From an uncultured Erysipelotrichaceae bacterium (lineage in GTDB: Bacteria > Bacillota_I > Bacilli_A > Erysipelotrichales > Erysipelotrichaceae), in NCBI GenBank assembly GCA_942493105.1, contig OW818668.1, positions 930,001 through 962,000 on the forward strand: DNA of 32,000 bases, given 5' to 3'. Every line of letters begins with the position of its first letter. Position 1 is the stretch's first letter. This document shows positions 12,562 through 31,793 of the stretch, piece after piece. The notes below the pieces were generated by a model. It did no database searches, was not told the origin of the DNA, and was given only the letters and a program-made list of their open reading frames with translations. The position numbers and the translations under genes were made by a program.

Positions 12562-12628
12562 CTTGAGTTGGTGACTTTGTTAAATAGATAAAGAAGTAGC
12601 ATAACCAACCAAGAACAGGAACCCATGA

Positions 12629-14156: not shown

Positions 14157-14319
14157 TAGTTAAGACCCCCTAACATGTATATTTTAACATAACAAGTACC
14201 ACATAAAAGCAAACAAGATTAGATATTTAAGTGTATGAAGGACTTAAGTAATCATACAAGTGGAAACTTAGAAACAAAGGAAACTAGACCCTATTAGAGT
14301 CTAGGTGAAGGAGAAAGAA

Positions 14320-15330: not shown

Positions 15331-15369
15331 TTTGTTATATCACTGAAATGTCAAGAAAAGGAGACCATC

Positions 15370-16101
15370 ATGATAGATTCACATTGCCATGTCTTATTTG
15401 GAGTAGACGATGGCCCAAAAATAATTGAGGATTCAATCACGATGCTCAAAGATGCTGCTGCAGACGGCATAAAAAAAGTTATATGTACCAGTCATTGTGT
15501 ACCTGGAATTAAATTTGAGAATGATTATGCCATATTGAAACCTGTTTATGATCAACTTGTAGAAGAATTGAAACATCAAAATATTGACATAGAACTCTAT
15601 TTAGCCTGTGAGTTAATGGCAACCCCTTTATCCCTAGAATGGTTAAAGGAAAACAGGATTGCCTCCTATAATCAAACCAAATGGCTTTTAGTTGAGATCC
15701 CTTATTTAAGCGATGTGCAGTTTGAAATAAATGTGGAAGATACTTTTAAAACTTTGCTTTCAATGGGCTATAAAATATTGATTGCCCATCCTGAACGCTA
15801 CAAACAGATTCAAAACGATTATAGTTTGATGGCCGTTTGGAGATCCATCGGGTGTAAGTTTCAAATCAACCGAACCAGTTTATTGGATACTGCCAGAGAA
15901 GTTGAAAGAAATCTGTCCTGGAAATTCATTGAGGATGATTATTGCGATGTCATCGCAACTGATGCGCATCGAACCAGTGTCAGAAACATCAAATTGAGTG
16001 ATGCTTATGCGATGGTAGAAGCAAGATTTGGAAGTGAAAAAGCAAAGCGTTTGTTTAATGATAATCCACAACGTTTGATCGATGGACTCGATCTCTTATA
16101 A
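15370..16101 (+). CDS. CpsB/YwqE-like PHP-domain metal-dependent phosphoesterase (protein-tyrosine-phosphatase family)
   Basis: MIDSHCHVLFGVDDGP, TSH, IAHPERY and ATDAH match the His/Asp metal-ligand blocks of pneumococcal CpsB across the whole length (243 aa). Confidence 0.8.
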   Translation: MIDSHCHVLFGVDDGPKIIEDSITMLKDAAADGIKKVICTSHCVPGIKFENDYAILKPVYDQLVEELKHQNIDIELYLACELMATPLSLEWLKENRIASYNQTKWLLVEIPYLSDVQFEINVEDTFKTLLSMGYKILIAHPERYKQIQNDYSLMAVWRSIGCKFQINRTSLLDTAREVERNLSWKFIEDDYCDVIATDAHRTSVRNIKLSDAYAMVEARFGSEKAKRLFNDNPQRLIDGLDLL

Positions 16102-16139
16102 AACATCTGACTTTTGAGTCAGAGAAAGCGAGGGTGTTT

Positions 16140-17117
16140 ATGCTTAATGTTGGTATCGTAGGAACAGGTATGATCAGTGAATCGTTTGTTAAGGCAGCCC
16201 ATCAACTCAGTGAAGTCAAAGTCATCGCGATTCAAAGTCGCACAATGGAATCTGCTTTAGAGTTTGCTAAACAACATCAAATTGAAAAGGCATATGACAG
16301 TTACGAATTGATGTTGAAAGATGAAGAAATTGATACGATCTACATTGGTTTACCAAACAGTCTACATTTCGACTATGGGATCAAAGCTTTAAAAGCCCAT
16401 AAGACCACCATCTTAGAAAAACCTTTCTTATCCAATATGAAAGAATATGATGCTTTGATGGCTGTCTCACGTGAATTCAAAACCCGTGTCTTTGAGATGA
16501 ACCGTGTCCTTCAACTCCCAAATTTTAAAGTCATCCAAGACCATTTAAAAGACATCGAACCTGTTAGTATGATCACCATGAACTTCAGTCAATACTCTCG
16601 CAAATATAATGATTATTTGGCTGGCAGGATCCTTAATGTCTTCTCAGATGAATATTCTGGAGGTGCTTTAGTAGATTTAGGGGTCTATGCGGTTCACTTC
16701 CTGGTGGGCTTATTTGGGTCTCCTAAAGAGCTGACTTATATTGCCTCACTACTGCCCAATACGATCGATGTGGGAGGTAACTTGATCTTAAAATACGATG
16801 GCTTTATCGCCAGTGTCGTACAAAGTAAGAACTCTAAATGTGATAATCGTATTTGTATCCAAGGAGAAAAAGGAACGATCTATGCCTCTCCTACAGCCTC
16901 AGCTTTACGTAAAGTAGAACTGGATACCACAGAAAAGAAAGACATCACTTTACCTCATGACCTAGAAGGTATGGCATATACTTTAAAAGATATCAACGAC
17001 ATCGTTGAAACAAACAACGAAGCATTATATCAAATCCGAGTTGAACAATCGCTTAAAGTCATGGAAGTTTTAGTTAAAGCAAGACAAAGTGCAGGAATCG
17101 TTTTCAAAGCTGATTAG
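16140..17117 (+). CDS. Gfo/Idh/MocA-family NAD(P)-dependent oxidoreductase
   Basis: N-terminal VGIVGTGMISESF dinucleotide fold and the EKP motif (ILEKPF). The ATG at 16140 is preferred over GTG at 16134. Confidence 0.8.
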   Translation: MLNVGIVGTGMISESFVKAAHQLSEVKVIAIQSRTMESALEFAKQHQIEKAYDSYELMLKDEEIDTIYIGLPNSLHFDYGIKALKAHKTTILEKPFLSNMKEYDALMAVSREFKTRVFEMNRVLQLPNFKVIQDHLKDIEPVSMITMNFSQYSRKYNDYLAGRILNVFSDEYSGGALVDLGVYAVHFLVGLFGSPKELTYIASLLPNTIDVGGNLILKYDGFIASVVQSKNSKCDNRICIQGEKGTIYASPTASALRKVELDTTEKKDITLPHDLEGMAYTLKDINDIVETNNEALYQIRVEQSLKVMEVLVKARQSAGIVFKAD

Positions 17118-17133
17118 TAGATCCATGATATAT

Positions 17134-17164
17134 AAAAAACGGAATCTTAATAGATTCCGTTTTT
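17134..17164. terminator. Bidirectional rho-independent terminator
   Basis: aaaaaacggaatct-taat-agattccgttttt. It marks the end of the metabolic block. Confidence 0.75.
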
Positions 17165-17171
17165 AGTACGA

Positions 17172-17438
17172 TTATTTAGTCACAGGTCTTTTAAAGATGT
17201 ATTCATCTCCGACATTATATCGATCATACTCTGTCTGATTTTTAACTTTGATGGTAGCCTCAAAGTCTCCATCCATCCCTGTAATTTTGTATGTCACATA
17301 AAAATAATATTGATTGGAACTAACAACTTCCTTATTGACGATGATGCTTTTTGTATCCACAGTTTTAGGACTACCAGAACACCCACCAATCAATAAAACA
17401 CCTATAACCAATACAGAAATCAAGATGAGCTTTTTCAA
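17172..17438 (-). CDS. Small lipoprotein, unknown function
   Basis: MKKLILISVLVIGVLLIGGCSG has a lipobox (LIGGC). TTG start with an aaagga SD. 88 aa. Confidence 0.6.
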   Translation of the reverse strand: MKKLILISVLVIGVLLIGGCSGSPKTVDTKSIIVNKEVVSSNQYYFYVTYKITGMDGDFEATIKVKNQTEYDRYNVGDEYIFKRPVTK

Positions 17439-17569
17439 AGGTTTATTCCTTTCGTTAATCTAATAATAGCACCATCATCATGAAAAACTACGAAAAATAG
17501 TGATGATTTTTTAAAGTAAAAAGGATTGTTTTTCTCAACAAACTTGTACCTTTTCACTAGATGTTTACT

Positions 17570-18061
17570 CTATTTATTCTTGAATATTTGAATATAACCT
17601 CTAAATAAAATCACAATAGCGGCCAGTATATACAGATAGCGATCATTGGAATATGCATATTGAGTAAAACTCAAATAAACAACAACACCTGCCAATAACA
17701 CATAGAAAGCACCATTAAAGATCTTACTGTTGAGACTGGTGGGTACTTTGAGCTTCACATCAGCCACTTTATAGTTTTTTAGCTTCGTTAATTTATTGAT
17801 GAAAATAAATCGATAATATAATTCTACGATGATGGTCAATCCAACTAGGAAGACAGCATCATAGATCAAATCAAAACCCAAGGCATAAAAGAAAACCGAG
17901 GCTACCAAGACAATAGTGTAGCGATTTCTAAAAAAGAACAAGCTTGTCATTTGATCTAAAGGAATCACATAGGCTGCATTTTCTTTTGGGATAGGTAAGA
18001 TATATCTTCCGTTTTTTTCTTTTATAACGCCCATCGATTCTATTGTTTTAGTGGATATCAT
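17570..18061 (-). CDS. Membrane protein, unknown function
   Basis: 163-aa ORF with a strong SD (gaggtgag) and about four hydrophobic segments. No recognisable motif. Confidence 0.5.
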   Translation of the reverse strand: MISTKTIESMGVIKEKNGRYILPIPKENAAYVIPLDQMTSLFFFRNRYTIVLVASVFFYALGFDLIYDAVFLVGLTIIVELYYRFIFINKLTKLKNYKVADVKLKVPTSLNSKIFNGAFYVLLAGVVVYLSFTQYAYSNDRYLYILAAIVILFRGYIQIFKNK

Positions 18062-18248
18062 AACTCACCTCAGCATTCATTATATCTTAAATATAACCTT
18101 AATTCTATGCATATATATACAAGCGGTGAACTTGATTTTAGTGCTATAATGAGTTCAAAAGAGGATAGTGGGAACAATCATACTTTTAAGCATTTATGAT
18201 CGATCATGATTCAAGTTTTTAAACAATCATGATCAGAAAGGTATTAAA

Positions 18249-18899
18249 ATGCCCCAACCTCTGAATACAAAAAATGTTAATATTGAAGAACCTTTGACGA
18301 TTCATTTTGAATGCGAAAATTGCGGTCATGAGTTTACGCGAGAAGGAAAGATCACTTGTAGTGGAAAAGCACAAAGCAATATTGATGATCAAAATGATCC
18401 TTCTCAACAAGCCCACAATTATGCCTTAGGCAGATTAAGCTTAGCCCATGATCTTTTAGATTCAATGATCTCTGAAGGTATTGTACAAACCAACACAGAT
18501 GAGAAAGACATCACCATCACCATCCATGGAAACAATAAATGTCCCAACTGTGGTTACACTCAAAGAATCATCCCTAAAAAAGTTAATCAAAAGAAAAAGA
18601 AAAAATTTACGACTCAAAGAATGCTGATGTGGACGTGGGGAACCATCTTGCTTACCATGTTTATCTTTACGTATGTTTTCTATACTTACGCTCAACTTAG
18701 AACTTTTTTAAATACCTTTAAACTGGTACCTTTACTTGTTGGGTTACTCTTAGTATTGGTTCCAATTACCTTACTGATGATCAACTACTATTTTAAAGAT
18801 CGAAAGCAAAATAAAAGAGCTAAGAATAGACTTAAAGAGGAAGCTTTACCTACCCCAAAGATGCCTGCAGTAACATTTGGTCAGCAAAAGACATTCTAG
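18249..18899 (+). CDS. Zinc-ribbon membrane protein, unknown function
   Basis: CENCG ... CPNCG cysteine pairs, a poly-Lys tract (KKVNQKKKKK), two C-terminal hydrophobic helices, and a gaaagg SD. Confidence 0.55.
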   Translation: MPQPLNTKNVNIEEPLTIHFECENCGHEFTREGKITCSGKAQSNIDDQNDPSQQAHNYALGRLSLAHDLLDSMISEGIVQTNTDEKDITITIHGNNKCPNCGYTQRIIPKKVNQKKKKKFTTQRMLMWTWGTILLTMFIFTYVFYTYAQLRTFLNTFKLVPLLVGLLLVLVPITLLMINYYFKDRKQNKRAKNRLKEEALPTPKMPAVTFGQQKTF

Positions 18900-18924
18900 C
18901 TAATTAGCTAATCACGATTATAGA

Positions 18925-18956
18925 AACGTAACTCAAGATCGAGTTATGTTTTTTTT
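18925..18956 (+). terminator. Rho-independent terminator
   Basis: cgtaactc-aagatc-gagttatg followed by tttttttt. Confidence 0.65.
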
Positions 18957-19017
18957 GTGATATAGGAATATCTGGTAGTAATTTCTTGTATAGAATCCGC
19001 ATAAGATATTTTAACAA

Positions 19018-19039
19018 ATGATACCATATGTAGTATCAT
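19018..19039. promoter_or_regulatory. Palindrome upstream of hicB-like gene (candidate autoregulatory operator)
   Basis: atgatac-catatgta-gtatcat is a 7-bp inverted repeat about 35 nt upstream of the ATG, next to the -10-like tataag. Confidence 0.35.
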
Positions 19040-19073
19040 ATAAGTATGTCAACTATAAATAAAGGAGAAGAAA

Positions 19074-19421
19074 ATGAACAAATATAAGATGATCGTTTAT
19101 ACAATGAAACAAGGTGACTCCGAGGAATATGTTGCGGAGTATCCTGCTTTAAAAGGGGTTGCTGGAGTTGGATCAAGTCCATTTGAAGCAATCGAAAATT
19201 TAATGGAAAGTGCTGAGGTCAATGTTGCAGCGCTAATTGAAGCAGGTCTTCTTGTTCCAGAAAGTGATTCACAAACAAGAAATGAATACAGCGGCAAACT
19301 ATCTGTACGATTATCAAGTAAGTTACATAGGATGGTTGCGGAGCTTTCGAAACAAGAAGGTGTTAGTATCAATCAATGTATTGTTGAAGCTGTTTCAATG
19401 TATGTAGGCAAGGTATATTAG
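19074..19421 (+). CDS. hicB: HicB-family antitoxin-like protein (HicB fold + C-terminal ribbon-helix-helix)
   Basis: YVAEYPALKGVAGVGSSPFEAIENL is a HicB-type N-terminal domain. GKLSVRLSSKLHRMVAELSKQEGVSINQCIVEAV is an RHH/Arc-like DNA-binding tail. Strong SD. Confidence 0.7.
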   Translation: MNKYKMIVYTMKQGDSEEYVAEYPALKGVAGVGSSPFEAIENLMESAEVNVAALIEAGLLVPESDSQTRNEYSGKLSVRLSSKLHRMVAELSKQEGVSINQCIVEAVSMYVGKVY

Positions 19422-19426
19422 TAGAA

Positions 19427-20311
19427 CTAAATTCCCAACTCATTGAATGTTAAAGACTCTGATATGCGGGTATAGATCCTTTTTTCATGAGTAGATTCAT
19501 GAGAACTGAACTCATAGATGCCGATGAAACGGTATAACCTTCTCCCCAAAACATCTTTACTTCGTGCAAAGGTGATTCGCAAATAATTATCTTGTCTTTC
19601 AAGCCCTTCCATTTCATTTGGATCCAGGCGATACTCTAAGATTTTGTTTCGATTATCAGCTAAAACATTAAGCCAACCATGGCTACCCTGTGATCGCAAC
19701 TCACCTTCTACAGTAGTTGCTAAATTTGGACACCAAATCCAATATTTTCCATTTAATTTGAAATATCCAGATTGTCTTTTAAAACGTACAAGACCAAATC
19801 CATTCGCAATCTCTTCGATGCGTCTAAAACGAATCTCATCTGAAACAGATAAATTTCTCTTCGTTTGTAATAATGTCGATGGGTTTTGATCAAAGTTCCA
19901 TGCTGGAACTTTTGACAGTTGAATAATTGCTTTTAGTTCCGAAACAACAGAATTGATCTGCTGATCTACGTTTTCAAAACTTTGATCCAAATCAATTCTT
20001 CTTAATATAAATTGTTTGGGTTCATCAAGGATTTCGATACTGGTTTGTATATCAAGCTGTCGGATCATATCCAAAGTGATTGTTGTCTTGTGATGAGGTT
20101 CATCGACTTCTAACCCAAAATTGATTTGAGGAAAATACATATCTAGGAGTGCGTAACTACCATTGGTGCGCTTGATGTATTGTTGAGTAACAGGCTTGAT
20201 ATCTAGGTTTCCTAATCTCTGCCAAATCGCATTGACGACATAATTCTCATAGTCTTTCTTTTTAGTTCTAGATAACGTTTTGATTAAGTAGTCGAGTTTT
20301 AGATCAATCAT
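19427..20311 (-). CDS. PvuRts1I/AbaSI-like modification-dependent (5hmC-type) restriction endonuclease, tentative
   Basis: 294 aa. The N-terminal block LLDMYFPQINFGLEVDEPHH (Asp ... E-x-D-E-x-H-H) and the C-terminal RRLYRFIGIYEF match my recollection of this family, which has a Vsr-like nuclease domain plus an SRA-like reader domain and is about 290-320 aa. Not verified by search. Confidence 0.5.
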   Translation of the reverse strand: MIDLKLDYLIKTLSRTKKKDYENYVVNAIWQRLGNLDIKPVTQQYIKRTNGSYALLDMYFPQINFGLEVDEPHHKTTITLDMIRQLDIQTSIEILDEPKQFILRRIDLDQSFENVDQQINSVVSELKAIIQLSKVPAWNFDQNPSTLLQTKRNLSVSDEIRFRRIEEIANGFGLVRFKRQSGYFKLNGKYWIWCPNLATTVEGELRSQGSHGWLNVLADNRNKILEYRLDPNEMEGLERQDNYLRITFARSKDVLGRRLYRFIGIYEFSSHESTHEKRIYTRISESLTFNELGI

Positions 20312-20340
20312 GGGTGTTTATCATAATTTCGTTTGTTTCA

Positions 20341-21726
20341 TTATAGTAATTCAAACCCTGCAGTAAAGTGTCTTAAGGATTGTATAGGTCCTTCATAGGT
20401 CAGCTTAAGACCCTTATAGGAGTCTCTGTTGGCGTAAATATCTCTTAAGGCATTGGCAATACAATCCATATGGTTATTGGTGTATACGCGTCTGGAAATG
20501 GCGATACGCATGGTTTCTAGTTCTGGCCAAACAGCTTCACCTGTCACAGGATCTTTGGATCCAAAAGCACAGGCACCTAACTCTACACAACGAATTCCAG
20601 CGAGTTCATATAAGGCAACAACCAATCTTTGAGAAGGGAATTCACTTTGTGGAATATGTGGGAAGAAACGTCTTCCATCGACATAAACTCCGTGTCCTCC
20701 AGTAGGTTCAATAATGGGGACACCCGCTTCTTTAAGTTTATTTCCCAGGTATTCAACTTGTTTGATTCGATACTCAAGATAATCATAATCACAGACTTCT
20801 TTTAAACCAACCGCCAATGCATCTAAGTCTCTGCCAGCCAAGCCGCCATAGGTAATGAAGCCTTCATGGACGATGGCAAGCTGATTGGCCATTTGAAAGA
20901 TGTTGAGTTTACGGGTTAAGAATAAACCACCTATATTGACTAAACCATCTTTCTTCGCACTCATCACGGCTGTTTCACAGTAAGATAAGGTTTCTAGAAT
21001 AATGCTTTGAATAGAAGCATCCTTGAACTCTGCTTCTCTGGTTTTGATGAAGTAAGCATTCTCTGCGATACGAGCAATATCCATACACATTGGGATCTCA
21101 TATTTTTGTGCCAAGGCTGCTGTTTCACGAATGTTTTTCATGGATACAGGTTGACCGCCATTGTTGTTGCAAGTGATTGTCAGCATGATCAAGCCAATGT
21201 TTTCTTTACCTTTGTCTAGAATAAAAGCTTCACAAGCTTTGATGTCTAGGTTACCTTTAAAGGCTTGTGGAGCACTGGAAGCATCTTTACCTGCTTCTAT
21301 GACTAAATCTGCTACTTGTGCACCTAAGACTTCCGCATTGCCTCTAAAGGTATCAAAATGCATATTGCCTATGGCAATCTGTCCAGGTTTACAATAGATC
21401 TTCGCAATCAAATAATCGGCAGCTCTGCCTTGATGAACCGGTTGAACATAAGGCATATCAAAGACTTCATGAACACTCTTCTCAAGTCTGAAGTAACTGT
21501 CACAACTGGCATAGGATTCATCACCCATCATCAAGGCTGCCCATTGATTCTTACTCATGGCGGAAGTACCGCTGTCGGTCAAGCAATCAATATAGACATT
21601 TTCAGCTTTGACTTTAAAGACATTGTATCCGGCTTCTTTAAGCCAGGCTCGTCTTTGATCAATGGTTGTCTTTTTGACGTGTTCAATCATTTTTATACGG
21701 AATGGTTCTGCGGTTTGATAGTTCAT
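20341..21726 (-). CDS. tnaA: Tryptophanase (PLP-dependent beta-eliminating lyase; a tyrosine phenol-lyase alternative is not excluded)
   Basis: Full-length collinearity with E. coli TnaA blocks: EPFRIKMIEHVKKTT, LTDSGT, AENAYFIK.REAE.KD, the PLP-lysine motif MSAKKD, and PHIP..FP.Q.L...LY..AGIR.VE.G. The ATG at 21726 (MNYQTAEPF...) follows a ggag SD; the track ORF starts at TTG 21744. Confidence 0.8.
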   Translation of the reverse strand: MNYQTAEPFRIKMIEHVKKTTIDQRRAWLKEAGYNVFKVKAENVYIDCLTDSGTSAMSKNQWAALMMGDESYASCDSYFRLEKSVHEVFDMPYVQPVHQGRAADYLIAKIYCKPGQIAIGNMHFDTFRGNAEVLGAQVADLVIEAGKDASSAPQAFKGNLDIKACEAFILDKGKENIGLIMLTITCNNNGGQPVSMKNIRETAALAQKYEIPMCMDIARIAENAYFIKTREAEFKDASIQSIILETLSYCETAVMSAKKDGLVNIGGLFLTRKLNIFQMANQLAIVHEGFITYGGLAGRDLDALAVGLKEVCDYDYLEYRIKQVEYLGNKLKEAGVPIIEPTGGHGVYVDGRRFFPHIPQSEFPSQRLVVALYELAGIRCVELGACAFGSKDPVTGEAVWPELETMRIAISRRVYTNNHMDCIANALRDIYANRDSYKGLKLTYEGPIQSLRHFTAGFELL

Positions 21727-21850
21727 ATGTGCTCCAGGGGTCAACTTAAGACCTGTTTACTTCCAATATTTAAGTACTATGCTACTAAGTTATGACAATA
21801 AATGAAGTTGGGCTGAAGTAGTTTAATAAGTTATAGCCTTTTACTTTATC

Positions 21851-22096
21851 TTAGAGTGATAATAAACCAAGTTCTTTAAGTGCTCCTTCTAAAACGATCA
21901 TGGTGAATTTTGTTGGAAGTCAGTTCATTTCAATCATTTCAAATCAACTTGAGGATGTCCAGCAAAAAAACCACTGGGATTCAAATATACTTTATCTACT
22001 ATAAAAGCATCGACTCGTGTTGAACATTGTGTAAAGAGTCTAGCTAAAGTATCTTGCATAGCGAGCGGTTGCCATACAGTACGGGTTCTTACTCAT
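21851..22096 (-). pseudogene. Decayed 5' portion of an acyltransferase-like gene (NeuD/PglD-type N-terminus, tentative), belonging to repeat copy A
   Basis: From the ATG at 22096 it reads MSKN then frameshifts: 1 nt is missing relative to copy B, and TAG sits where B has TAT. Piecing frames together gives ...KTVLYGNRSLCKIL*LDSLHN...VDKVYLNPSGFFAGHPQVD(L)FEMIEMN.LPTKFTMIVLEG. No frame is open. Confidence 0.45.
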
Positions 22097-22147
22097 AAGA
22101 GCTTCCTCTCCAACTTTGGAGATCCTTGTTGATTTTATTATAACTGA
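21985..22147 (-). repeat. Cassette-boundary repeat, copy A
   Basis: The core 22030-22147 (tgtaaagagtc...ccttgttgattttatt.taactga) is near-identical to 25744-25862 and 29174-29290. About 45 nt further left is shared with copy B only. Confidence 0.9.
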
Positions 22148-22269
22148 TAGGGTTAGTAGTTCTAACATTGTTTAATATAAACAAGGAATAATAATGAATT
22201 TAAGTGAAGATTCATGAGGATTTGAAATGGTGTTTTAAGTGGTTTCTTTGAAGACTAAGCATTGATTGT

Positions 22270-22297
22270 AAAAAAGGACTGTTACACGTAACAGTCC
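22270..22297 (-). terminator. Minus-strand rho-independent terminator with no annotated gene upstream
   Basis: On the minus strand it reads ggactgttacgtgtaacagtcc followed by tttttt. There is no T-run on the plus-strand side. Confidence 0.6.
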
Positions 22298-22817
22298 GGA
22301 TTATAGTAGTCTTTCACATTAAGTACTTACCTGGATTTGATGGCTCTTTTGTGGAAATTATAACGATATACATACTACCCCAGTGTCACTTTGACTGAGA
22401 TATCCTTTTTAACAAGTTTATCGACATAGGTTTATAAGAATCACAACGAAGTTTAAAAGATGTTCTATAGCGATTTTGGGATAAGGATGGAACTTGGCTA
22501 TAGGAGATGTTGTCCCATGTACTGGCACATTTAGCAGGTCATATCAATGTCAATTCAGCCTCTACAAATAGACCATTACGATTGTATAAAAACCTTGACT
22601 CTATAATATAGAAGACTTAGAATTAAAGACAGGCGAAAGCTATATTTCTATACCAATAATGGTTTGTTACTCATTGGTTAGGTGGCTTCAATTGGAATTT
22701 TTAGATTTTGATAATTTTGCGTTCATGAGTGATTTTGGTTTTGGTTTTAAAACGCATATATTTAGAAAATATACATGAGTCGGTAACTATGTTTAACAAC
22801 TAAAAAGGGTGGGAAAA

Positions 22818-23603
22818 ATGCCATATTGTCAAAATTGTGGAAAGTCAGTATCAGGAAACGCAAAGTTTTGCATTGATTGTGGTGTCACTTTAAACCTAAC
22901 AGAAGATAACGCAACTAGAAAACAAGAATTTGTGGGAAAAATATCAAAATGTCCTTCTTGTGGTGCGGGAATACCAAGTTTTACAGCGATGTGTCCGGTC
23001 TGTGGACATGAGATCAATTCTGCTCGTGTAACATCATCTATTAAGGATTTTGCAGAAAAGATGATTCAATGTGACTTAGAAATTGCTAATAGCCCTGTCA
23101 AACTTAAAAAAGGATGGAGCTCGTGGGGAAAATGGGGAAAAATCGGATGGGTTTTTCTTAACATTTCCACATTTGGAGGACCTGTAATTATTCCTTACAT
23201 ATTCAAATCATTTGGTGTTGGTGGGATTCCTACATTGACTGCAGCAGAAATGAAAAAGCTTACAATGATAGATAACTTTGCTTTCCCAAATGATCGAGAG
23301 AGTATTCTTGAAGCGCTTTTATTTATCAAATCTCAAGTATCATCACTTTCGTCTGGAAAAGTTGATCGAAGTACACAACGATGGATAGGAATCTGGAAAA
23401 ACAAAGCAGACCAGCTTTTTCAAAAAGCAGACATCATGTTTAAGGGTGACAAGATTGCTATAGATGCATATGATGTCATTGTTGAAATAGAGAAGAAAGT
23501 TAAAAAATCGCTTGGCAAAAAAAGAATTATAGGAATTGTCCTAATAATTATATTCGTCATTATAATACTTTCATACTATGCTACAAGAGAACCTTCAGTT
23601 TAA
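22818..23603 (+). CDS. Double zinc-ribbon membrane protein (YdjG-like architecture)
   Basis: MPYCQNCGKSVSGNAKFCIDCG and KCPSCGAGIPSFTAMCPVCGHEI are two CxxC...CxxC ribbons. Hydrophobic segments are GWVFLNISTFGGPVIIPYIF and the C-terminal IIGIVLIIIFVIIILSYY. The ATG at 22818 follows aagggtggg; the track ORF starts at GTG 22809. Confidence 0.65.
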   Translation: MPYCQNCGKSVSGNAKFCIDCGVTLNLTEDNATRKQEFVGKISKCPSCGAGIPSFTAMCPVCGHEINSARVTSSIKDFAEKMIQCDLEIANSPVKLKKGWSSWGKWGKIGWVFLNISTFGGPVIIPYIFKSFGVGGIPTLTAAEMKKLTMIDNFAFPNDRESILEALLFIKSQVSSLSSGKVDRSTQRWIGIWKNKADQLFQKADIMFKGDKIAIDAYDVIVEIEKKVKKSLGKKRIIGIVLIIIFVIIILSYYATREPSV

Positions 23604-23731
23604 TTCACATCAACAAACGATTGAAATCCATCATTGATGTGAGGCTTGAATAAGGTTAAAAAGCTGAACTTATTTTTGGGACAACATAAGTTTTAACAGG
23701 TAGAAATACCAGTGAAAAGGGAGGTCTAAAT

Positions 23732-25096
23732 ATGGGATTATTTGGTAAACAGAAGGCAGGTGGATTTATGGATGAAATTCGATGTGATGAACCCTCATAC
23801 TTGATTTGGAAATGGCATCCAACCGGTTCTCAACAAGGATCAAATAATAGAGAGAATGCAATAAGGTGGGGTTCTAGTCTACGTGTAAAAGATGGAGAAG
23901 CGGCTGTGTTTGTATATAATCAGAAAGATGATACGATGCAAGATTTCATCGTAGGTCCGCATGATCAGATACTGAAGACAGACAATCTACCGATCTTGGC
24001 CAGTATTGTAGGGTTGGCTTATAAGGGCGGTACTCCGTTTCAAGCTGAAGTCTATTTCATTAACTTAGCAAAAGTGATTCAAGTTCCGTTTGCGGTTCCT
24101 TTCTTTGATTTATATGACCCAAGATTCTTGGACTTTGGAATACCAACCGCTGTAAGAGGAAGAATAACATTTAATATTGCAAACTACAGAGAATTTATTA
24201 AACTACACAGACTTTCCAATTTTGACTTAAATTCATTCCAGATTCAAATACGTGATGCTGTCGCAAGATATGTTAAGGGCATTGTTACAAATGCACCATC
24301 AGAAAACAATATTCCCGTTGTACAGATCGAGCGTGAAATTCTAAAAATTAATGAGTTAGTTGAAGAAAATATTAAAGAACGATTTGAAAGAGACTTTGGT
24401 GTGAATATTACTTCTGTGGATATTACCGCTATTGAAGTAGATAAATCTAGTGTTGGTTATCATCAGTTAAAGAGTGTGACACAAGATGTTGCCTCAGCAA
24501 CTGTAAAAGCCCAAGCAGAAGTAAACATTAAGAATCTGCACGATACACAAAGAATTAATGCCGTGAATTTAGAAGAAACGATGCGTATTCAAAGAGAAGA
24601 AGCACAATATGCTCAAAGAAAGCAGTCAGAAACCTCCAATTTTGCAGCTTATCAACTTGAAAAACAAGTAGAGTTTGGTATTGCTGGTGCGGATGCATTG
24701 GGTCAGATGGGCGCAAATGGTGCCACTGAAATATCTGGCGGTGGAGGAATGAACCCGGTAGGTTTGATGACTGGAATGGCAATGGGCGGAGCTATAGGTC
24801 AAAATATGGCAGGTATGATGAATAATATGATGGGCGGAGCAAAACAAGCAGATCCTGAACTGACACCACCTCCTGTTATTGCTTCTGTGTATTATGTCGC
24901 TGTTAATGGTCAAGCAACCGGTCCATATGATATCCGTACGTTAGCTCAGATGGCAACAGTCGGGACATTTTTAAAGACAAGTTTGGTATGGAAACAAGGA
25001 ATGACAAATTGGATTTCTGCAGACACTGTCCAAGAGTTGCAATTGGTCTTTGGCAGTGAACCTTCCTCTATACCTCCAGTTCCACCAACGATTTAA
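23732..25096 (+). CDS. SPFH/Band-7 (YdjI-like, virion-core-protein-like) protein with Gly/Met-rich linker and C-terminal GYF_2 (DUF4339) domain
   Basis: The N-terminus MGLFGK...FMDEIRCDEPSYLIWKWHP and the following ~270 aa resemble B. subtilis YdjI-type SPFH proteins. The low-complexity linker is GGGGMNPVGLMTGMAMGGAIGQNMAGMMNNMMGG. The C-terminal VYYVAVNGQATGPYDIRTLAQMATVGTFLKTSLVWKQGMTNWISADTVQEL is a GYF_2 pattern. Strong SD (aagggagg). Confidence 0.7.
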   Translation: MGLFGKQKAGGFMDEIRCDEPSYLIWKWHPTGSQQGSNNRENAIRWGSSLRVKDGEAAVFVYNQKDDTMQDFIVGPHDQILKTDNLPILASIVGLAYKGGTPFQAEVYFINLAKVIQVPFAVPFFDLYDPRFLDFGIPTAVRGRITFNIANYREFIKLHRLSNFDLNSFQIQIRDAVARYVKGIVTNAPSENNIPVVQIEREILKINELVEENIKERFERDFGVNITSVDITAIEVDKSSVGYHQLKSVTQDVASATVKAQAEVNIKNLHDTQRINAVNLEETMRIQREEAQYAQRKQSETSNFAAYQLEKQVEFGIAGADALGQMGANGATEISGGGGMNPVGLMTGMAMGGAIGQNMAGMMNNMMGGAKQADPELTPPPVIASVYYVAVNGQATGPYDIRTLAQMATVGTFLKTSLVWKQGMTNWISADTVQELQLVFGSEPSSIPPVPPTI

Positions 25097-25109
25097 AGGA
25101 GTCGTTACA

Positions 25110-25460
25110 ATGAGCGATAATAATTTCTACTCAATGGATAAACTTATTGAATTTGGTATGAGTATTTCGATTGCCAGCCAAATGGCACAGTCAATGAATC
25201 GAACGATAAACCAAATGACTATTCCAGGCTCATCTAATGCTATGCTTACTCAAATAGAAACAGTTTATTATGCTGTGATAAATGGTAAGCAAGCAGGACC
25301 TTATTCATTAACTGAGTTGTCAAGATTGATTAAAGATAAGATCATTTTAAAGGAAACTTATATCTGGAAACCTGGCATGGTTCAATGGGATCTTGTAGAA
25401 AATGTTGATGTGTTATTAAGACTTGTGGCAGTAACTCCACCACCGATACCTAACCTTTAG
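25110..25460 (+). CDS. Small GYF_2 (DUF4339) domain protein
   Basis: The ATG at 25110 (MSDNNFYSM...) follows an aaaggag SD, 13 nt after the previous stop. The C-terminal VYYAVINGKQAGPYSLTELSRLIKDKIILKETYIWKPGMVQWDLVENV repeats the GYF_2 pattern. The track ORF begins further upstream, at 25050. Confidence 0.65.
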   Translation: MSDNNFYSMDKLIEFGMSISIASQMAQSMNRTINQMTIPGSSNAMLTQIETVYYAVINGKQAGPYSLTELSRLIKDKIILKETYIWKPGMVQWDLVENVDVLLRLVAVTPPPIPNL

Positions 25461-25474
25461 TAGGTGTTTGAAAC

Positions 25475-25503
25475 AACCTGCAACACTTTATTGCAGGTTT
25501 TTT
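25475..25503 (+). terminator. Rho-independent terminator closing cassette 1
   Basis: aacctgcaa-cacttta-ttgcaggtt followed by ttttt. Confidence 0.75.
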
Positions 25504-25695
25504 GTAGTCGCAATCAAGCATTTCTGTCTAAAAATAAACTAAAAACGATAAATTTACTGAGAAGTTTGCATAACGTTATATTTCATCAAATCATTTTTAA
25601 TGAATTTTCTCGATGATACCCACATTTGAATAGGTCGACTTTTTTATCGTCACAATGTGAAAGTTGTATGTGTAAAAATAAAAGACTATTCCACC

Positions 25696-25862
25696 TAATA
25701 CACTTTATCTACGACAAAAGCAACGACCTCGATTTGATCATTGTGTAAAGAGTCCAGATAAAGCATCTTGCATAGCGAGCGGTTGCCATACAGTACGGTT
25801 TTCTTACTCATAAGAGCTTCCTCTCCAACTTTGGAGATCCTTGTTGATTTTATTTTAACTGA
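25696..25862 (-). repeat. Cassette-boundary repeat, copy B (contains a 38-codon relic ORF at 25695-25811)
   Basis: On the minus strand: SD ggagagg, then ATG, then MSKKTVLYGNRSLCKMLYLDSLHNDQIEVVAFVVDKVY*. Near-identical to copies A and C. Confidence 0.9.
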
Positions 25863-26206
25863 AAGACTAAAGGAAACTCAAAAACCCATTCTCAAAAATG
25901 CATGATTATATTTTTGGTTTCATGTAATAAAAAATCGTAACTGAATAAATATCTATAAAGCGTGGTTAATAAGCGAAGTATTGCATTATACGTTAATGTT
26001 TAAAAATTCTGCAGATGTATCTAAACTCAACCAAAAACTTGATTAAGTATGCTTTTTACTGATATCATAAATATACGAGAATTGTTTAATTTAAATGACT
26101 GAATACTATCTTATGTAGATCAAAAAACTCGTATCTATACAATCAATGCTTATTAAATTGAGAAAATTGTATACATTCAGTTTGTTAAATATTGTGGGGT
26201 AATACA

Positions 26207-28378
26207 ATGGTTAGGAAAGAGCCGATTTATTATCATTTGATCTTTGGGTCACTTCAGTGTAAAGAGACTTTTGGGGTTGATCTTTTATATGGTGACTACG
26301 AGTATATTATCAACCTCAATTCATCACTAATTAGTAAACTTTATTTTGAGAATTACAGTGAAGTAAAAACATATTATTGCAGTGAACTAATCAATAAATC
26401 AGAATATGAAGAACTAACACTTCTGGAATACACATTTCATAATAAAAAAGCTTTTGATTTATTACACAATCTAGCAGAAAGGCTACTTTTTCGTAATGAG
26501 GTTCAATATCTGTTTCTATGTATCGATTGCTTGTGGGTTATTGATAAATTACTAGGTTTTTATGATTTAGTTGATGAGTCTGTGTACTTAACTGTCAACT
26601 CTCGTTTAAAAAATGAGTATGATGTAGATCTTAGGTTCCACTATGCACTAACTTTTACAAGATATAAATATTTAAACGAAATGATTGCGATCGAAACAAG
26701 AAAAAAATTCAAAATTGAAAAGCTTATTCGTACTGCAATTACCACCATCGCTATCGCACATTCAATAGCAGAAGCGTTTAGACCGAATTTATACAAAATT
26801 GGGTTTCGTATTCTTGAACAAATCGATACAATTGAACTTCAAAAAATAGTTAATGAGGATAATCTGAAAACGATTATTAACGAAATATTACAATCTACTG
26901 TTTCGATCAATGAAGATGCTTTAAATTTTTATGTAACAAGACGGCTAAGTTTGAAACTAGATATGACGTTAGGTAAAAACCTCCCAAACAAAATCAAGAT
27001 TAACTACATTCAAGATAACTTAGATTTTGTATCAGCTTTAATTAAAGGCAAGATTCCTCAATCTTTTATTGCATTACAAAAAATCCTTGAAATTCTTGAA
27101 AATGACAGAATTGAGGACTTAGGTGAGAAATATAAATATCATAATTTTAATATAGGATCTTTGGTAATATATTTATTAAAGATTGATAATAGTTACACCA
27201 TTATAAGACTCTTTACAGTTCTTAAAATAATTGAGTTTGACCAGATGTATAAAGTCTGGGATCAATCAATAGGGTCAAATTATCTTGATCTATGTTATAA
27301 CTATTTAATATACAAATCAAAGACCGAAAAACACTTTAAATTAAGTAAGAATGATAAAACGTGGTTGCTATGCCTTTTAAAAGCGTTAAGGAGCGAAAAT
27401 GATTTGACTCAACCAGTTGATAGAATAGTTTTTTTGTTTAATAATATTGACTTCCTTTCCATTGATATGGAGACCATTATAGAAATATGCAAACATATTT
27501 ATGACACTGAAAAATATAAATCAACACACGATAGTATTCAATTGGCGCTAGAAGCTAGACAGTATGAACTTGTCAAATACCTAGATGCAAATAGGGAAGT
27601 AATTGATTTACTTGTTTCTAAATTCAATATTGAAAAACTTAATAAAACCAAACGATTTGTGATTATGAGACAACTTGAAAAGAATTGTGAGAGATACTTT
27701 TCTCAAATTCAAGATAGTCCTTTGGGCTATAAGATAATTGTTGCTCGAAATGCGAATGATATTCAAAAACATCAGCGTACATGTTTGTATATTGATCAGA
27801 TAAAATACATGATGAGAGAGCTAAAGGTTAGAAATATCACAGATCTTTTCCATTTCACACCAATTGATAATCTTGCGAGTATTCTTGAAAAAGGAATTAT
27901 ACCCAGAAGTTATCACAGACAACTAAAAGTTCGGTCTATTTGTACAGATTCTGAACGTTATGATCATAGATTGGAATACACTAGTTTATCAATAATGAGG
28001 CCGAATAGTAGAATGCTTTACTATAAGAGGGCTGAAAAGATTATAGTGATTTTAAGGATTGATGCTCAGATTTTGCTTAATGTAACGAACCATCCGTTAT
28101 TCTTTCAAGAAAATGCTTCTCGTTTGATATATAAAGAAAAGCCCTCAAAAGATTTTATGAATGTATCAAAATTCACAAGTTTGTTTCCAACACCGGAATC
28201 AAATATAACGTTGAGTGACCAAGCAGAGATTTTATTACCTGATATTATAGACAAGAGGTATATCAAAGAGATTATTTTTTTCACGAATTCAGATCTCCAA
28301 TTTGTGTTGAGTCATATTAAGCAAGAAAGTTTGAATGGGATAAATTTACTTATCAAGGAGGTAAGAAATGGCATCTAG
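26207..28378 (+). CDS. Large fusion protein: ~545-aa uncharacterised helical N-terminal region + C-terminal DarT-like (DUF4433) ADP-ribosyltransferase domain
   Basis: The C-terminal block (nt ~27835-28378) reads LFHFTPIDNLASILEKGIIP (compare DarT H-x-T...NL..IL), YTSLSIMRPNSRMLYY, PLFFQENAS and SDQAEILLPDII (the ARTT-type QAE glutamate, codon 28226-28228). The ATG at 26207 follows a gtggggt SD; the track ORF starts at TTG 26192. Confidence 0.65.
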   Translation: MVRKEPIYYHLIFGSLQCKETFGVDLLYGDYEYIINLNSSLISKLYFENYSEVKTYYCSELINKSEYEELTLLEYTFHNKKAFDLLHNLAERLLFRNEVQYLFLCIDCLWVIDKLLGFYDLVDESVYLTVNSRLKNEYDVDLRFHYALTFTRYKYLNEMIAIETRKKFKIEKLIRTAITTIAIAHSIAEAFRPNLYKIGFRILEQIDTIELQKIVNEDNLKTIINEILQSTVSINEDALNFYVTRRLSLKLDMTLGKNLPNKIKINYIQDNLDFVSALIKGKIPQSFIALQKILEILENDRIEDLGEKYKYHNFNIGSLVIYLLKIDNSYTIIRLFTVLKIIEFDQMYKVWDQSIGSNYLDLCYNYLIYKSKTEKHFKLSKNDKTWLLCLLKALRSENDLTQPVDRIVFLFNNIDFLSIDMETIIEICKHIYDTEKYKSTHDSIQLALEARQYELVKYLDANREVIDLLVSKFNIEKLNKTKRFVIMRQLEKNCERYFSQIQDSPLGYKIIVARNANDIQKHQRTCLYIDQIKYMMRELKVRNITDLFHFTPIDNLASILEKGIIPRSYHRQLKVRSICTDSERYDHRLEYTSLSIMRPNSRMLYYKRAEKIIVILRIDAQILLNVTNHPLFFQENASRLIYKEKPSKDFMNVSKFTSLFPTPESNITLSDQAEILLPDIIDKRYIKEIIFFTNSDLQFVLSHIKQESLNGINLLIKEVRNGI

Positions 28379-29036
28379 ACCAGTATTTGTAGCAGCCTCA
28401 TTTAAAGAACCAATTCAAGAGGTACAAACAAGTTTCACATTCTTCAGTGGCTTTTCACTAGACCAAAAGAGAAAATCAATACAATCACTACACAATTCTT
28501 ATCTTGAGAATAATCCCAATAAGAGGATCTTAGAGATATCAACAAAATCACCCGATGAATTAGGAAGAAAACTGAGTGCTTTTAATTTGTGTGTTCAAGT
28601 AAATCAGAGAATCCTTCCGCTTGAGTGCGTGTTTCAATCGTCAAAAATTTTTGAGAATGGCGGACCTTATTCTGAACTTATGTATCTTGATCCGGTTTCT
28701 GCGAAAAAGGATATGAGACTTAGAAACTCAGGCAGGTTGGTCAGTTTCAGATTTGATAACAAGGTTTTTCCCCTTGAACCAAAATCATACTTTTATGACT
28801 GTTTATATATAGAAGCAGTTCTCAACTCAACGAGTTTAGTTGATGAATTAATGTGCTATGACGCATTTACGGATATAGAGTTTAATCCCAAAAAATCATA
28901 TAATTGCCAAGCGAGATCTGCAGCCCTTTTCGTCACATTGTACAAAACAAATGAATTGAACAAATTCTTGAATGATATAGATTTTGCAAAGAAATTTTAC
29001 GATAAGGAGAACTTTCAGACATCACTCAACTTATAG
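28368..29036 (+). CDS. Candidate cognate antitoxin/reversal enzyme: 222-aa protein with a NADAR (DUF1768)-like core motif, tentative
   Basis: The ATG overlaps the upstream stop by 11 nt and has a perfect SD (aaggaggt). KLSAFNLCVQVNQRILPLECVFQSSKIF parallels the YbiA-type NADAR block FSNF-x(14-17)-SEHYFQAQKF. No macrodomain motifs are present. Confidence 0.35.
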   Translation: MASRPVFVAASFKEPIQEVQTSFTFFSGFSLDQKRKSIQSLHNSYLENNPNKRILEISTKSPDELGRKLSAFNLCVQVNQRILPLECVFQSSKIFENGGPYSELMYLDPVSAKKDMRLRNSGRLVSFRFDNKVFPLEPKSYFYDCLYIEAVLNSTSLVDELMCYDAFTDIEFNPKKSYNCQARSAALFVTLYKTNELNKFLNDIDFAKKFYDKENFQTSLNL

Positions 29037-29173
29037 TTTTAGAATTAAACTTAACACAGTTGCTTATAGAAATTTAAATAGAATGTTATAACACTTTAGA
29101 AGGTTTTCAAATTTACTATCATAATTTGGATCATCAATGCCTATTAATTAGTAATGATCTCAACTAATTTTAA

Positions 29174-29290
29174 TGTAAAGAGTCCAGATAAGGCGTCTTG
29201 CATAGTGAGCGGTTGACATACAGTACGGTTTTCTTACACATAAGAGTTGCTCTCCAACATTGGAGATCCTTGTTGATTTTTTATAGCTGA
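29174..29290 (-). repeat. Cassette-boundary repeat, copy C (contains a 23-codon relic ORF at 29170-29241)
   Basis: On the minus strand: SD ggagagc, then ATG, then MCKKTVLYVNRSLCKTPYLDSLH*. This is the shortest copy; homology starts at tgtaaagag. Confidence 0.9.
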
Positions 29291-29379
29291 TGATTGTAAT
29301 AGATTGATGTTGAATAACAGAATCAATGAGAAAATACAGAAAACTAATGGTGTATAATTAAAAATGGAGTAGGTATTCT

Positions 29380-29694
29380 ATGAAAGAAACAAAAGATAAA
29401 GTCATTAAGTTCACACATGATCGTGATTGGGATCAATTTCACTCACCTGAAAACTTAGCTAAATCAATCTCAATTGAAGCAGCTGAACTTTTAGAGTGCT
29501 TCCAATGGAACAATGACTTCAAAAAAGAAGAAGTTATTGATGAGTTGGCTGATATTGTCAATTACTGCATCCTCTTATCTGATAAGCTAGATGTTGATCT
29601 GGAAGATATTGTTTTAAGCAAACTTAAGAAGAATGAAGAAAAGTATCCAATAGAAAAATCAAAAGGGAAAAGCGACAAATATAATAAGTTGTAA
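29380..29694 (+). CDS. MazG-like all-alpha nucleoside-triphosphate pyrophosphohydrolase (DCTPP1/RS21-C6-like)
   Basis: FTHDRDWDQFHSPENLAKSISIEAAELLECFQW ... DELADIVNYCILL matches the R.W.QFH.P.NL....E..EL.E.FQW / E.AD signature of the dCTP-pyrophosphatase-type MazG family. 104 aa. Confidence 0.75.
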   Translation: MKETKDKVIKFTHDRDWDQFHSPENLAKSISIEAAELLECFQWNNDFKKEEVIDELADIVNYCILLSDKLDVDLEDIVLSKLKKNEEKYPIEKSKGKSDKYNKL

Positions 29695-29708
29695 AAGGGG
29701 GATTTCTT

Positions 29709-31385
29709 TTGGAGACCAAACTGTTTAATTTTACAGATGATGTCTTAACTAAAATAAGCGACACTGATTTTGCTGAGAAATGGCCAGTCGTTTATTTTAT
29801 TCATAATGAAAATGAAGCGTATATTGGAGAAACCACCAATATCTTAATTAGAGTTTTACAGCACAGAAAAAATCCAGAACGCAAAGAATTGAAAAAGATT
29901 TTAGTTATTACCGATAAAATGTTTAATAAATCAGCAATTATGGATATTGAGTCGCAACTTATTAAATACATAGCAGCTGATGGAAAATTCAAACTACAAA
30001 ATTTGAATTCTGGACTCCAAAATCATAATTATTACCAAAAGGATACTTATGAGAAAATATTTCGTGATTTATGGAAACATCTAAAGAAAGAGCATCTTGC
30101 GGTTTTTGATATTCAACAAATTGAAAACTCTGATCTATTCAAATATTCACCATATAAGTCATTAACAACAGATCAATATTTTACAGTAGACCTAATTCTG
30201 GATGATTTAGCAAGAAACTTTGATCAGAAAACCACAACAATTGTCAATGGTGGAGCTGGAACTGGGAAGACAGTTTTAGCAGTTTATCTCATTAAGTTGT
30301 TAAAAACTTATGATAATGTGTCACAGATCTTTGATGATGAGTTTGAAGAAGATTATGTTAAAAACATTGTTGAAATTCTTAGACAGAAACAAAACCTCAA
30401 AATTGCACTTGTCGTACCGATGACATCACTTAGGAAGACACTGAAGAAAGTGTTTAGGGGTGTAAAGGGCTTATCGGCCAGTATGGTTATTGGACCAAAT
30501 GATGTGTCTAGAGACGATTATGATATTTTGATCGTTGATGAAGCTCATCGACTAAGAAGAAGACTTAATATTACAAATTACGCAGCTTTCGATAAAATCA
30601 ATGCTGAATTAGGGTTTGGAAACGAAGGAACAGAACTAGATTGGATTATGGCTAAAAGTAAACACCAGATTTTGTTTTATGATTCAGCTCAAACAATTCG
30701 ACCAGCAGATATTAGGGAAAGTCAGTTTAGTAATTTGTATAACCAAAATGATCTGTTTAAACAGTACGATCTGACTTCTCAGATGAGAAGTATGGGTGGG
30801 CAAGATTATATTAATTACGTTAAGCAAATGTTTGCTTGTAACCCTAATCTGCAGAGAATTGTATTTGAAAATTATGAATTCAGAATCTTTGATAATGTAA
30901 AAGATATGTATGACGAAATCAAAAAGAAAGATAGCGAAGTTGGATTATCTAGAATGGTTGCTGGATATGGTTGGGAATGGATTTCAAAAGGTAAATCATT
31001 AGAGTCAATTGTGAACAATGATCTATTCGATATCAGAATTCAAGGTCAGAAGTTTATTTGGAATACCACCAATAAAGACTGGGTTAACTCAAAAAATGCA
31101 TTAAATGAAATTGGGTGTATTCATACTACTCAGGGATATGATTTGAACTATGTTGGTATTATCATAGGAAATGAACTTACTTTTGATCCAATAGCGAATC
31201 AAATGGTGATAGATAAAGAACACTACTATGATCGAAATGGATTGACTAACATCGAAAACTATCAAGAATTGAAAGATTACATACTAAATATCTATTCAAC
31301 TCTATTCCTTCGCGGAATAAAGGGGACATATGTTTATGTTTGTCACAAAGATTTGAGGGAGTATTTAAGGAAATTCCTTGGATAA
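29709..31385 (+). CDS. GIY-YIG nuclease domain + DUF2075 (Schlafen-type) P-loop ATPase/helicase-like protein
   Basis: N-terminal VVYFIHNENEAYIGETTNILIRVLQH...IESQLI is a GIY-YIG pattern. Walker A is GGAGTGKT (nt 30249-30272) and Walker B is ILIVDEAHRL. TTG start 7 nt after aaaggggg, 14 nt after the MazG stop. Confidence 0.7.
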   Translation: METKLFNFTDDVLTKISDTDFAEKWPVVYFIHNENEAYIGETTNILIRVLQHRKNPERKELKKILVITDKMFNKSAIMDIESQLIKYIAADGKFKLQNLNSGLQNHNYYQKDTYEKIFRDLWKHLKKEHLAVFDIQQIENSDLFKYSPYKSLTTDQYFTVDLILDDLARNFDQKTTTIVNGGAGTGKTVLAVYLIKLLKTYDNVSQIFDDEFEEDYVKNIVEILRQKQNLKIALVVPMTSLRKTLKKVFRGVKGLSASMVIGPNDVSRDDYDILIVDEAHRLRRRLNITNYAAFDKINAELGFGNEGTELDWIMAKSKHQILFYDSAQTIRPADIRESQFSNLYNQNDLFKQYDLTSQMRSMGGQDYINYVKQMFACNPNLQRIVFENYEFRIFDNVKDMYDEIKKKDSEVGLSRMVAGYGWEWISKGKSLESIVNNDLFDIRIQGQKFIWNTTNKDWVNSKNALNEIGCIHTTQGYDLNYVGIIIGNELTFDPIANQMVIDKEHYYDRNGLTNIENYQELKDYILNIYSTLFLRGIKGTYVYVCHKDLREYLRKFLG

Positions 31386-31793
31386 ATGTTTGAAAGGTTA
31401 AATATGGAAACAATCAAAGTAGTGGCTGCCTTAATTAAGGATGCAGATAAATATCTCATTGGATTAAGGTCAACTGGTAAGTACAAAGGATTTTGGGAAT
31501 TCCCTGGGGGAAAAATTGAGGAGAATGAAGAACTCGAAGATGCATTAATGCGTGAGATTTATGAAGAGTTTGAAATCAATATAAGTATAGAAAAACTTCT
31601 TTTCAAAATCGAATACACTTATCCAGAGTTTATTCTTGAGATGTATTGTTTCTTGACTACCTCTTTAGACAAAGAATTTGTATTAAATGACCATAGTGAA
31701 ACAATGTGGTTTGACCCTAAAAACGATATCGAGATCAATTGGTTACCAGCGGATCTCAAAATTGTTGAATTATTGAAATGTGCTAATTTTTAG
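31386..31793 (+). CDS. Nudix hydrolase, MutT/NudG-like (deoxy)nucleoside-triphosphate pyrophosphohydrolase
   Basis: Nudix box GGKIEENEELEDALMREIYEEFEI (GX5EX7REUXEEXGU). The ATG abuts the upstream TAA. An alternative ATG at 31404 (METIKVV...) has a gaaagg SD. Confidence 0.8.
   Translation: MFERLNMETIKVVAALIKDADKYLIGLRSTGKYKGFWEFPGGKIEENEELEDALMREIYEEFEINISIEKLLFKIEYTYPEFILEMYCFLTTSLDKEFVLNDHSETMWFDPKNDIEINWLPADLKIVELLKCANF

Follow-up and report, generated by a model that had tools for sequence, protein, structure and literature searches.

The DNA considered here is a 32,000-nucleotide stretch of contig OW818668.1 (positions 930,001 to 962,000 of the forward strand; NCBI GenBank assembly GCA_942493105.1) from an uncultured Erysipelotrichaceae bacterium, referred to below as the window. 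It carries two plus-strand genes that encode a predicted DarT1-type ADP-ribosyltransferase toxin and its predicted NADAR antitoxin. The toxin gene (26207..28378, stop codon included) is an open reading frame (ORF) that begins with ATG and specifies 723 residues: an orphan N-terminal region (residues 1-535, 26207..27811) followed by a DarT1 ADP-ribosyltransferase (ART) domain (residues 548-711, 27848..28339) defined by the Pfam DarT family PF14487, the PDB entry 8BAQ and an alignment of DarT1 domains. The second gene (28368..29036) specifies a DarT1-associated NADAR antitoxin of 222 residues, a predicted guanine-ADP-ribose hydrolase, which is assigned from PF22397, the PDB entry 8BAT, its homologues and an AlphaFold2 model.

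The NADAR gene overlaps the stop codon of the toxin gene by 11 nt, and its Shine-Dalgarno sequence, AAGGAGG (28355..28361, plus strand), lies 6 nt ahead of the ATG, still within the 3' end of the toxin gene. Judged from the sequence, translation of the two genes is coupled. The ORF list and direct reading of the DNA thus agree with the initial annotation, a model's reading of the letters alone, which had described genes for 723 and 222 residues with an 11-nt overlap and a perfect Shine-Dalgarno sequence. A GGGG-containing, Shine-Dalgarno-like stretch lies upstream of the toxin's ATG at 26207; the alternative start, a TTG at 26192, has no Shine-Dalgarno sequence. The toxin ORF contains no in-frame stop, whereas each of the five remaining frames of this DNA has 42-102, and when its N-terminal 1635 nt were shuffled 1000 times, the longest open run was 128 codons. 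The ORF is therefore far beyond what chance would give, and residues 1-535 are certainly coding.

At the C-terminus of the toxin, PF14487 matches residues 548-711 with an E-value of 1.1e-15 (58.4 bits against a cutoff of 22.5), and the only PDB sequence match of the protein is the DarT1 of Escherichia coli C7 (8BAQ, E 1e-9). Both matches bear out the proposal, made in the initial annotation for residues ~545-723, of a DarT-type ADP-ribosyltransferase; the landmarks cited for it in the last ~180 residues (LFHFTPIDNLASIL, YTSLSIMRPNSRMLYY, FFQENAS and SDQAEILLP) are all present and in that order. Alignment A2 combines this domain with those of 23 DarT genes that are linked to NADAR in reference genomes. 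The profile of A2, with the toxin domain included, reaches 8BAQ at 3.5e-64 and the DarT2-DarG structure 7OMU at only 1e-9, and because it is so much closer to 8BAQ, the subfamily is taken to be DarT1. Mean identity of the toxin domain to the other DarT1 proteins is 29%, against a family-wide pairwise mean of 30%, so that it is ordinary in its divergence and not an outlier. Its nearest relatives, at 36% identity, are genes from Bacillota metagenome-assembled genomes, which carry extensions of 93-136 residues.

All 13 invariant columns of A2 are kept in the toxin (H549, F550, T551, I559, D581, R584, D586, S595, P599, N600, N636, Q672 and E674). Mutagenesis of C7 DarT1 has shown that R52, D54, M71, N104 and E152 are essential, while H17 contacts NAD+ and N104 coordinates the guanine (PMC11543638). 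The counterparts of C7 H17, R52, D54, M71, N104 and E152 in the toxin are H549, R584, D586, M603, N636 and E674, respectively. M603 is placed by the pairwise alignment to 8BAQ and does not stand in an invariant A2 column; N636, within FFQENAS, does, and it aligns to N105 of the 8BAQ chain, an Asn where DarT2 has His. D586 is the extra Asp specific to DarT1, and S595 corresponds to the DarT1-specific Ser63 (C7 numbering), in place of the Tyr of the H-Y-E motif. The predicted ART catalytic Glu, E674 (codon 28226..28228, plus strand), is the Glu of the QAE motif that had been singled out from the sequence earlier; it is equivalent to the catalytic E152 of C7 DarT1 and sits at the E152A position of 8BAQ in the profile alignment, and Q146/E148 are invariant in A2. 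Judged by these alignments, the predicted set of catalytic, NAD+-binding and guanine-specifying residues of the DarT1 domain is complete.

The 222-residue product matches PF22397, the family named 'DarT1-associated NADAR antitoxin', over residues 2-205 (E 7.8e-82, 274 bits against a cutoff of 27), and the Geobacter lovleyi NADAR 8BAT over residues 1-194 (E 1.8e-44). Its homologues at E<=1e-10 number 1,677, and the closest of these, itself aside, are 46-56% identical, the usual spread for the family. The catalytic residues of NADAR in C7 numbering are E88, K95 and D171, with K115 in addition (PMC11543638); E88, K95, K115 and D171 correspond here to E86, K93, K113 and D169, all four invariant in alignment A1, which holds 30 NADAR family members. 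Also present is the beta-beta-alpha extension that is typical, at the N-terminus, of NADARs associated with DarT1. From the homologue alignment, AlphaFold2 gave a model with a predicted local distance difference test (pLDDT) value of 92.4, and a Foldseek search of the PDB places it first on 8BAT (template modelling score, TM, 0.89; root-mean-square deviation 1.8 Å) and next on E. coli YbiA (2B3W). The Foldseek matches include neither a macrodomain nor an ARH structure, and Pfam finds no macrodomain in the protein or in the neighbour genes.

The segment KLSAFNLCVQVNQRILPLECVFQSSKIF, from which a NADAR-type partner without a macrodomain had originally been proposed, is found in the protein, and that part of the proposal fits the PF22397 match. 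The initial annotation had also stated that the rest of the protein does not obviously match NADAR, and had offered a highly divergent NADAR-like or entirely new reversal enzyme, which would make the locus a new kind of DarT system. Such an enzyme could explain why the raw sequence shows just one short NADAR-like segment and why no PADLOC 2.0 model matches the partner, but the PF22397, 8BAT, homologue and Foldseek results refute it: the matches run over nearly the whole protein, close relatives abound, the catalytic residues are all invariant, and the model takes the 8BAT fold, not a new one. The probability left to this reading is negligible. Since the full-length PF22397 match, the 8BAT match, the invariant catalytic residues and the 8BAT-like model all agree, the partner is, by sequence and predicted structure, a canonical DarT1-associated NADAR whose active-site residues are complete.

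The pair very probably forms a DarTG1-type (DarT1-NADAR) toxin-antitoxin and anti-phage module, borne on a low-GC, horizontally acquired cassette. The reference DarTG1 proteins, E. coli C7 DarT1 (8BAQ) and G. lovleyi NADAR (8BAT; Schuller et al. 2023, PMC11543638), have the same domains, the same toxin-then-NADAR order and overlapping genes. The likeness extends to the conserved catalytic residues of both enzymes, to the guanine Asn, the extra Asp and the Ser in place of the H-Y-E Tyr, and to the beta-beta-alpha extension of NADAR. By analogy with the E. coli C7 and G. lovleyi proteins (PMC11543638, PMC11825919), the DarT1 domain would use NAD+ to attach ADP-ribose to guanine N2 in single-stranded DNA (ssDNA). 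This modification would block phage DNA replication and, if unchecked, the replication of host DNA; NADAR would hydrolyse guanine-ADP-ribose and so protect the host, while phage DNA would be modified during infection. DarTG2, in which DarT2 ADP-ribosylates thymidine and DarG is a macrodomain antitoxin, has a homologous ART fold and the same logic of reversible ssDNA-base ADP-ribosylation. Unlike DarTG2, the pair described here has no macrodomain partner, Asn rather than His is predicted to coordinate the base, and the A2 profile stands much farther from 7OMU than from DarT1.

Several observations weigh against this assignment. The loop just ahead of QAE is ~10-12 residues shorter than in most relatives in A2, and the C-terminal F..R.D...W motif of the family is absent from the toxin; with both features departing from the reference DarTG1 toxin, substrate binding could differ. 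The PADLOC DarT model matches the toxin only weakly (6e-7), no PADLOC 2.0 model recognises the NADAR, and the N-terminal region has no homologue, confident model or recognisable motif behind any role. The short loop and the missing motif, together with an identity to characterised DarT1 of only about 27-30%, would be expected if the ART domain had drifted to RNA, another base or protein, or had been impaired by the short loop, so that the pair is no longer a guanine-ssDNA system. That reading is very unlikely, because the toxin retains N636, the Asn that coordinates guanine, and D586, the Asp specific to DarT1, the cognate NADAR is of the guanine-ADP-ribose-specific type with its active-site residues intact, and another DarT1 from the reference genomes (L077) also has a short loop.

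The most conspicuous departure from DarTG1 is the length of the toxin, 723 residues rather than ~208, which is due to the 535-residue orphan N-terminal region. A phmmer search with residues 1-545 against 1.84 billion protein cluster representatives returned only the protein itself. A word-index homologue search, of a kind too insensitive for AT-rich, low-identity sequences such as these, likewise left the full toxin as a singleton and gave nothing for the DarT domain alone. Searches of Pfam, PHROGs and the PDB with the N-terminal region produced no match even at E<=10, and PADLOC recognised only the toxin's DarT domain and nothing in the N-terminal region. In tblastn searches with the toxin, plasmids matched residues 531-699 only and phages gave no match; peptide-pattern scans of genome and metagenome contigs with the toxin or its N-terminus also found none, and a look-up of contigs that encode the exact protein gave no record. 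The region has no transmembrane segment by the Kyte-Doolittle scale and no significant internal repeat. A single-sequence AlphaFold2 model of the whole toxin has a pLDDT of 36.6, too low for a fold search; DSSP assigns helix across residues 8-538 of it, and because the model is of such low confidence, it gives the all-helical prediction weak support. The earlier description of a ~545-residue helical N-terminal domain is thus upheld as to a fused region of ~535-545 residues, while its helical character comes from that model.

Extended DarT1 proteins were surveyed in other genomes. The NADAR alignment led to 80 loci from one-genome-per-species reference contigs, among at least 593 such loci that exist, and the ORFs called there were searched with an iterated DarT1 hidden Markov model. 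A DarT1 gene adjoins NADAR in 56 of the 79 loci that have a NADAR ORF, and as two loci carry two, 58 intact genes result. Most of their products span 172-244 residues, and 17 of the 58 have N-terminal extensions of 86-443 residues, lengths that are upper bounds because the farthest upstream start codon was used. The extension frames were compared with 300 shuffles each; none stayed open for 16 extensions and two did for the shortest (86 residues), so the frames are taken to be real. The longest proteins include those of L042 (685 residues), Butyrivibrio (L044, 601), Martelella radicis (L060, 588), Collinsella (L056, 570) and Chryseomicrobium aureum (L002, 460). A further case, additional to the 17, is Acetoanaerobium noterae (L081, 407 residues), whose gene overlaps NADAR.

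In the ten longest extended proteins, Pfam detects DarT alone. The extensions are mutually unrelated except for those of L042 and L044, which share 36% identity over 308 residues, and none is a relative of the N-terminus of the 723-residue toxin; an hhalign comparison of that N-terminus with the L042/L044 family, the only alignable one, gave a probability of 0.15%. The extension of the 723-residue toxin is the longest seen. Judged by eye, the extensions of L002, L024, L045 and L060 open with hydrophobic, transmembrane-like helices, and E/K/R-rich coiled-coil stretches stand directly before DarT in L030, L042, L044, L056 and L081; some extensions hold small, apparently beta-rich segments. In these proteins, as in the toxin, an unannotated N-terminal stretch precedes a DarT1 domain at the C-terminus, and a NADAR gene adjoins. 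They differ from the toxin in N-terminal sequence, and transmembrane helices or E/K-rich coiled coils, which the toxin lacks, occur in some of them. No description of N-extended DarT1 was found in PMC11543638, PMC11125620, PMC11825919, PMC8120803 or PMC13069673; LeRoux et al. 2022 lay outside that search. The suggestion that the architecture was undescribed therefore needs dividing. The toxin is not a one-off, since extensions recur in 17 of 58 genes and in A. noterae, though unrelated to it in sequence, but it remains the longest example, with an orphan N-terminus, and no description was found.

The same loci show that the arrangement of the two genes varies. NADAR stands ahead of an N-extended DarT1 in L042 (NADAR 257-1054, DarT1 1205-3262) and in L063 (NADAR 5001-5699, DarT1 5715-7034). 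In L033, L046, L053 and L061, which are Gammaproteobacteria-type loci, DarT1 lies downstream on the opposite strand, and L051 has one ORF of 472 residues in which DarT1 and NADAR are apparently fused. In 23 of the 79 reference loci, no DarT gene is detectable beside the DarT1-type, PF22397-like NADAR (L006, L007, L014, L016, L029, L032, L034, L038-L041, L048-L050, L052, L055, L057-L059, L069, L071, L079 and L080). The neighbours at these loci are mutually unrelated and include PALP/ACT, WYL, ORF6N, DprA, an IrrE-like peptidase, a resolvase, RNase T and an isochorismatase. These may be orphan antitoxin-like NADARs, some of them on mobile elements.

The long N-terminal region could simply be functionless baggage, an upstream orphan gene recently fused to the toxin by loss of a stop, with the C-terminal ~190 residues as the working toxin, possibly made from Met535 or Met536. 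Standalone DarT1 proteins begin where these two residues stand, ~13 residues ahead of the HFT motif, and an N-terminus that has no homologue and is unrelated to every other DarT1 extension is what such an accident might leave. This explanation is unlikely, however. An internal start at Met535/Met536 (27809-27814) was considered and rejected, as no Shine-Dalgarno sequence stands ahead of these ATGs. Moreover, 535 codons kept open in DNA of 29% GC imply continued selection or a very recent origin, and the independent recurrence of extensions in ~30% of DarT1 genes suggests that they are useful.

An accessory role for the 535-residue region, as a module that would gate or direct the toxin, is the hypothesis adopted here. 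The preferred guess, held tentatively, is a cis autoinhibitory or phage-sensing domain, a plausible role that the initial annotation had also put forward, and a targeting or scaffolding function comes next in likelihood. Autoinhibition or sensing in cis is favoured because the N-termini of DarT1 proteins are hypervariable and unrelated, as the specificity modules of defence proteins often are. In addition, the DarT1/NADAR papers do not show NADAR binding to its toxin (PMC11825919), which leaves room for another layer of control. The closest published idea to an extended DarT1 is DarHTG (Liu-DS3; PMC13069673), where a DarT core is joined by a UvrD-like helicase and an ARH-like DarG3, and the extra module is needed for defence; DarHTG sets a precedent for DarT systems with accessory parts. 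In DarHTG the added module is a helicase, a protein separate from the toxin, and the antitoxin is ARH-like; in the pair described here the added part belongs to the toxin polypeptide itself and shows no recognisable fold, and the antitoxin is a NADAR.

The pair occupies one of a series of repeat-bounded cassettes. GC content, 0.37-0.40 elsewhere in the window, drops to 0.29-0.33 over the pair and the genes that follow it. The name of one NagA cluster suggests a host among the Erysipelotrichaceae. A direct repeat of ~120-170 nt occurs in three copies, 3714 and 3430 nt apart (repeat families D1-D4; three-copy alignment), and marks out cassettes of ~3.5 kb; its core gives three matches where none is expected. 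Copy 1 (21984..22150) forms the left boundary of the preceding cassette, copy 2 (25697..25865) the left boundary of the pair's cassette and copy 3 (29174..29280) its right boundary, none of them assigned to a strand as a feature. Read on the minus strand, the copies bear a Shine-Dalgarno sequence, an ATG (at 25811 in copy 2) and a decayed 5' fragment of one gene, which in copy 2 reads MSKKTVLYGNRSLCKMLYLDSLHNDQIEVVAFVVDKVY and then a stop. The right edge of the repeat is common to the copies and the left edge is variable. The arrangement looks like serial insertion at one hotspot.

By Pfam, no integrase is present among the ORFs at 13437-31793, the ORFs at 1-13400 being outside the scan. An integron gene cassette was considered and rejected, as the repeat folds as ssDNA no better than its shuffles (z ~0.2), is not attC-like and reads as a 5' gene fragment. 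The repeat has no match in Rfam or in metagenome, viral or plasmid collections, and searches with the gene fragment that it bears gave no identity. A resemblance of the fragment to the N-termini of NeuD/PglD-type acyltransferases was considered, and these searches do not support it.

The repeats delimit three units. In the one preceding the DarT1-NADAR unit, Pfam identifies the product of 22809-23603 as a double zinc-ribbon protein and that of 23732-25096 as an SPFH/Band-7 protein whose C-terminus carries a GYF_2 domain; a third gene (25050-25460), which overlaps the second, encodes a small GYF_2 protein and is followed by a strong terminator-like hairpin at 25475-25499. The unit after the pair (29380-31793) consists of three tightly packed genes: a MazG-like gene (29380-29694), a gene for a GIY-YIG and Schlafen-group-3/DUF2075 helicase protein (29709-31385), whose GIY-YIG portion is matched by PADLOC PDC-S14, and a NUDIX gene (31386-31793) that matches the PADLOC candidate PDC-S07 at 8.6e-41. 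These three genes probably make up a candidate defence module of their own, with nucleotide pyrophosphatases at its centre. To the left of the repeats lies a HicB-family antitoxin-like gene (19074-19421, plus strand), which adjoins a gene for a protein with a PvuRts1I-like N-terminal part and an SRA domain (19427-20311, minus strand), the domain arrangement of type IV restriction enzymes that depend on modified cytosine. The HicB-like and PvuRts1I-like/SRA genes lend support to regarding the window's right half as a defence island.

The DarTG1 system and its antitoxin were already known, and what is new at this locus is the very long orphan N-terminal region of the toxin, the extreme of a recurrent class of extended DarT1 proteins. 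The locus also adds one more DarT1-NADAR pair, a well-preserved one, to those known, this time from a low-GC genome of the Bacillota. A broader possibility, which we regard as speculative and on balance doubtful, is that DarT1 proteins form a modular sensor-effector family in which a conserved guanine ADP-ribosyltransferase is joined to fast-evolving, interchangeable N-terminal domains that respond to phage cues or keep the toxin inactive in cis. The C-terminal domain of DarG gives protein-level neutralisation in DarTG2. If the modular view is right, the N-terminal domains would supply the counterpart in DarTG1, a function not shown for NADAR. Occurring in ~30% of NADAR-linked DarT1 proteins, the extensions are natural candidates for a regulatory or specificity layer in DarTG1, and they give a direct handle for truncations and domain swaps.

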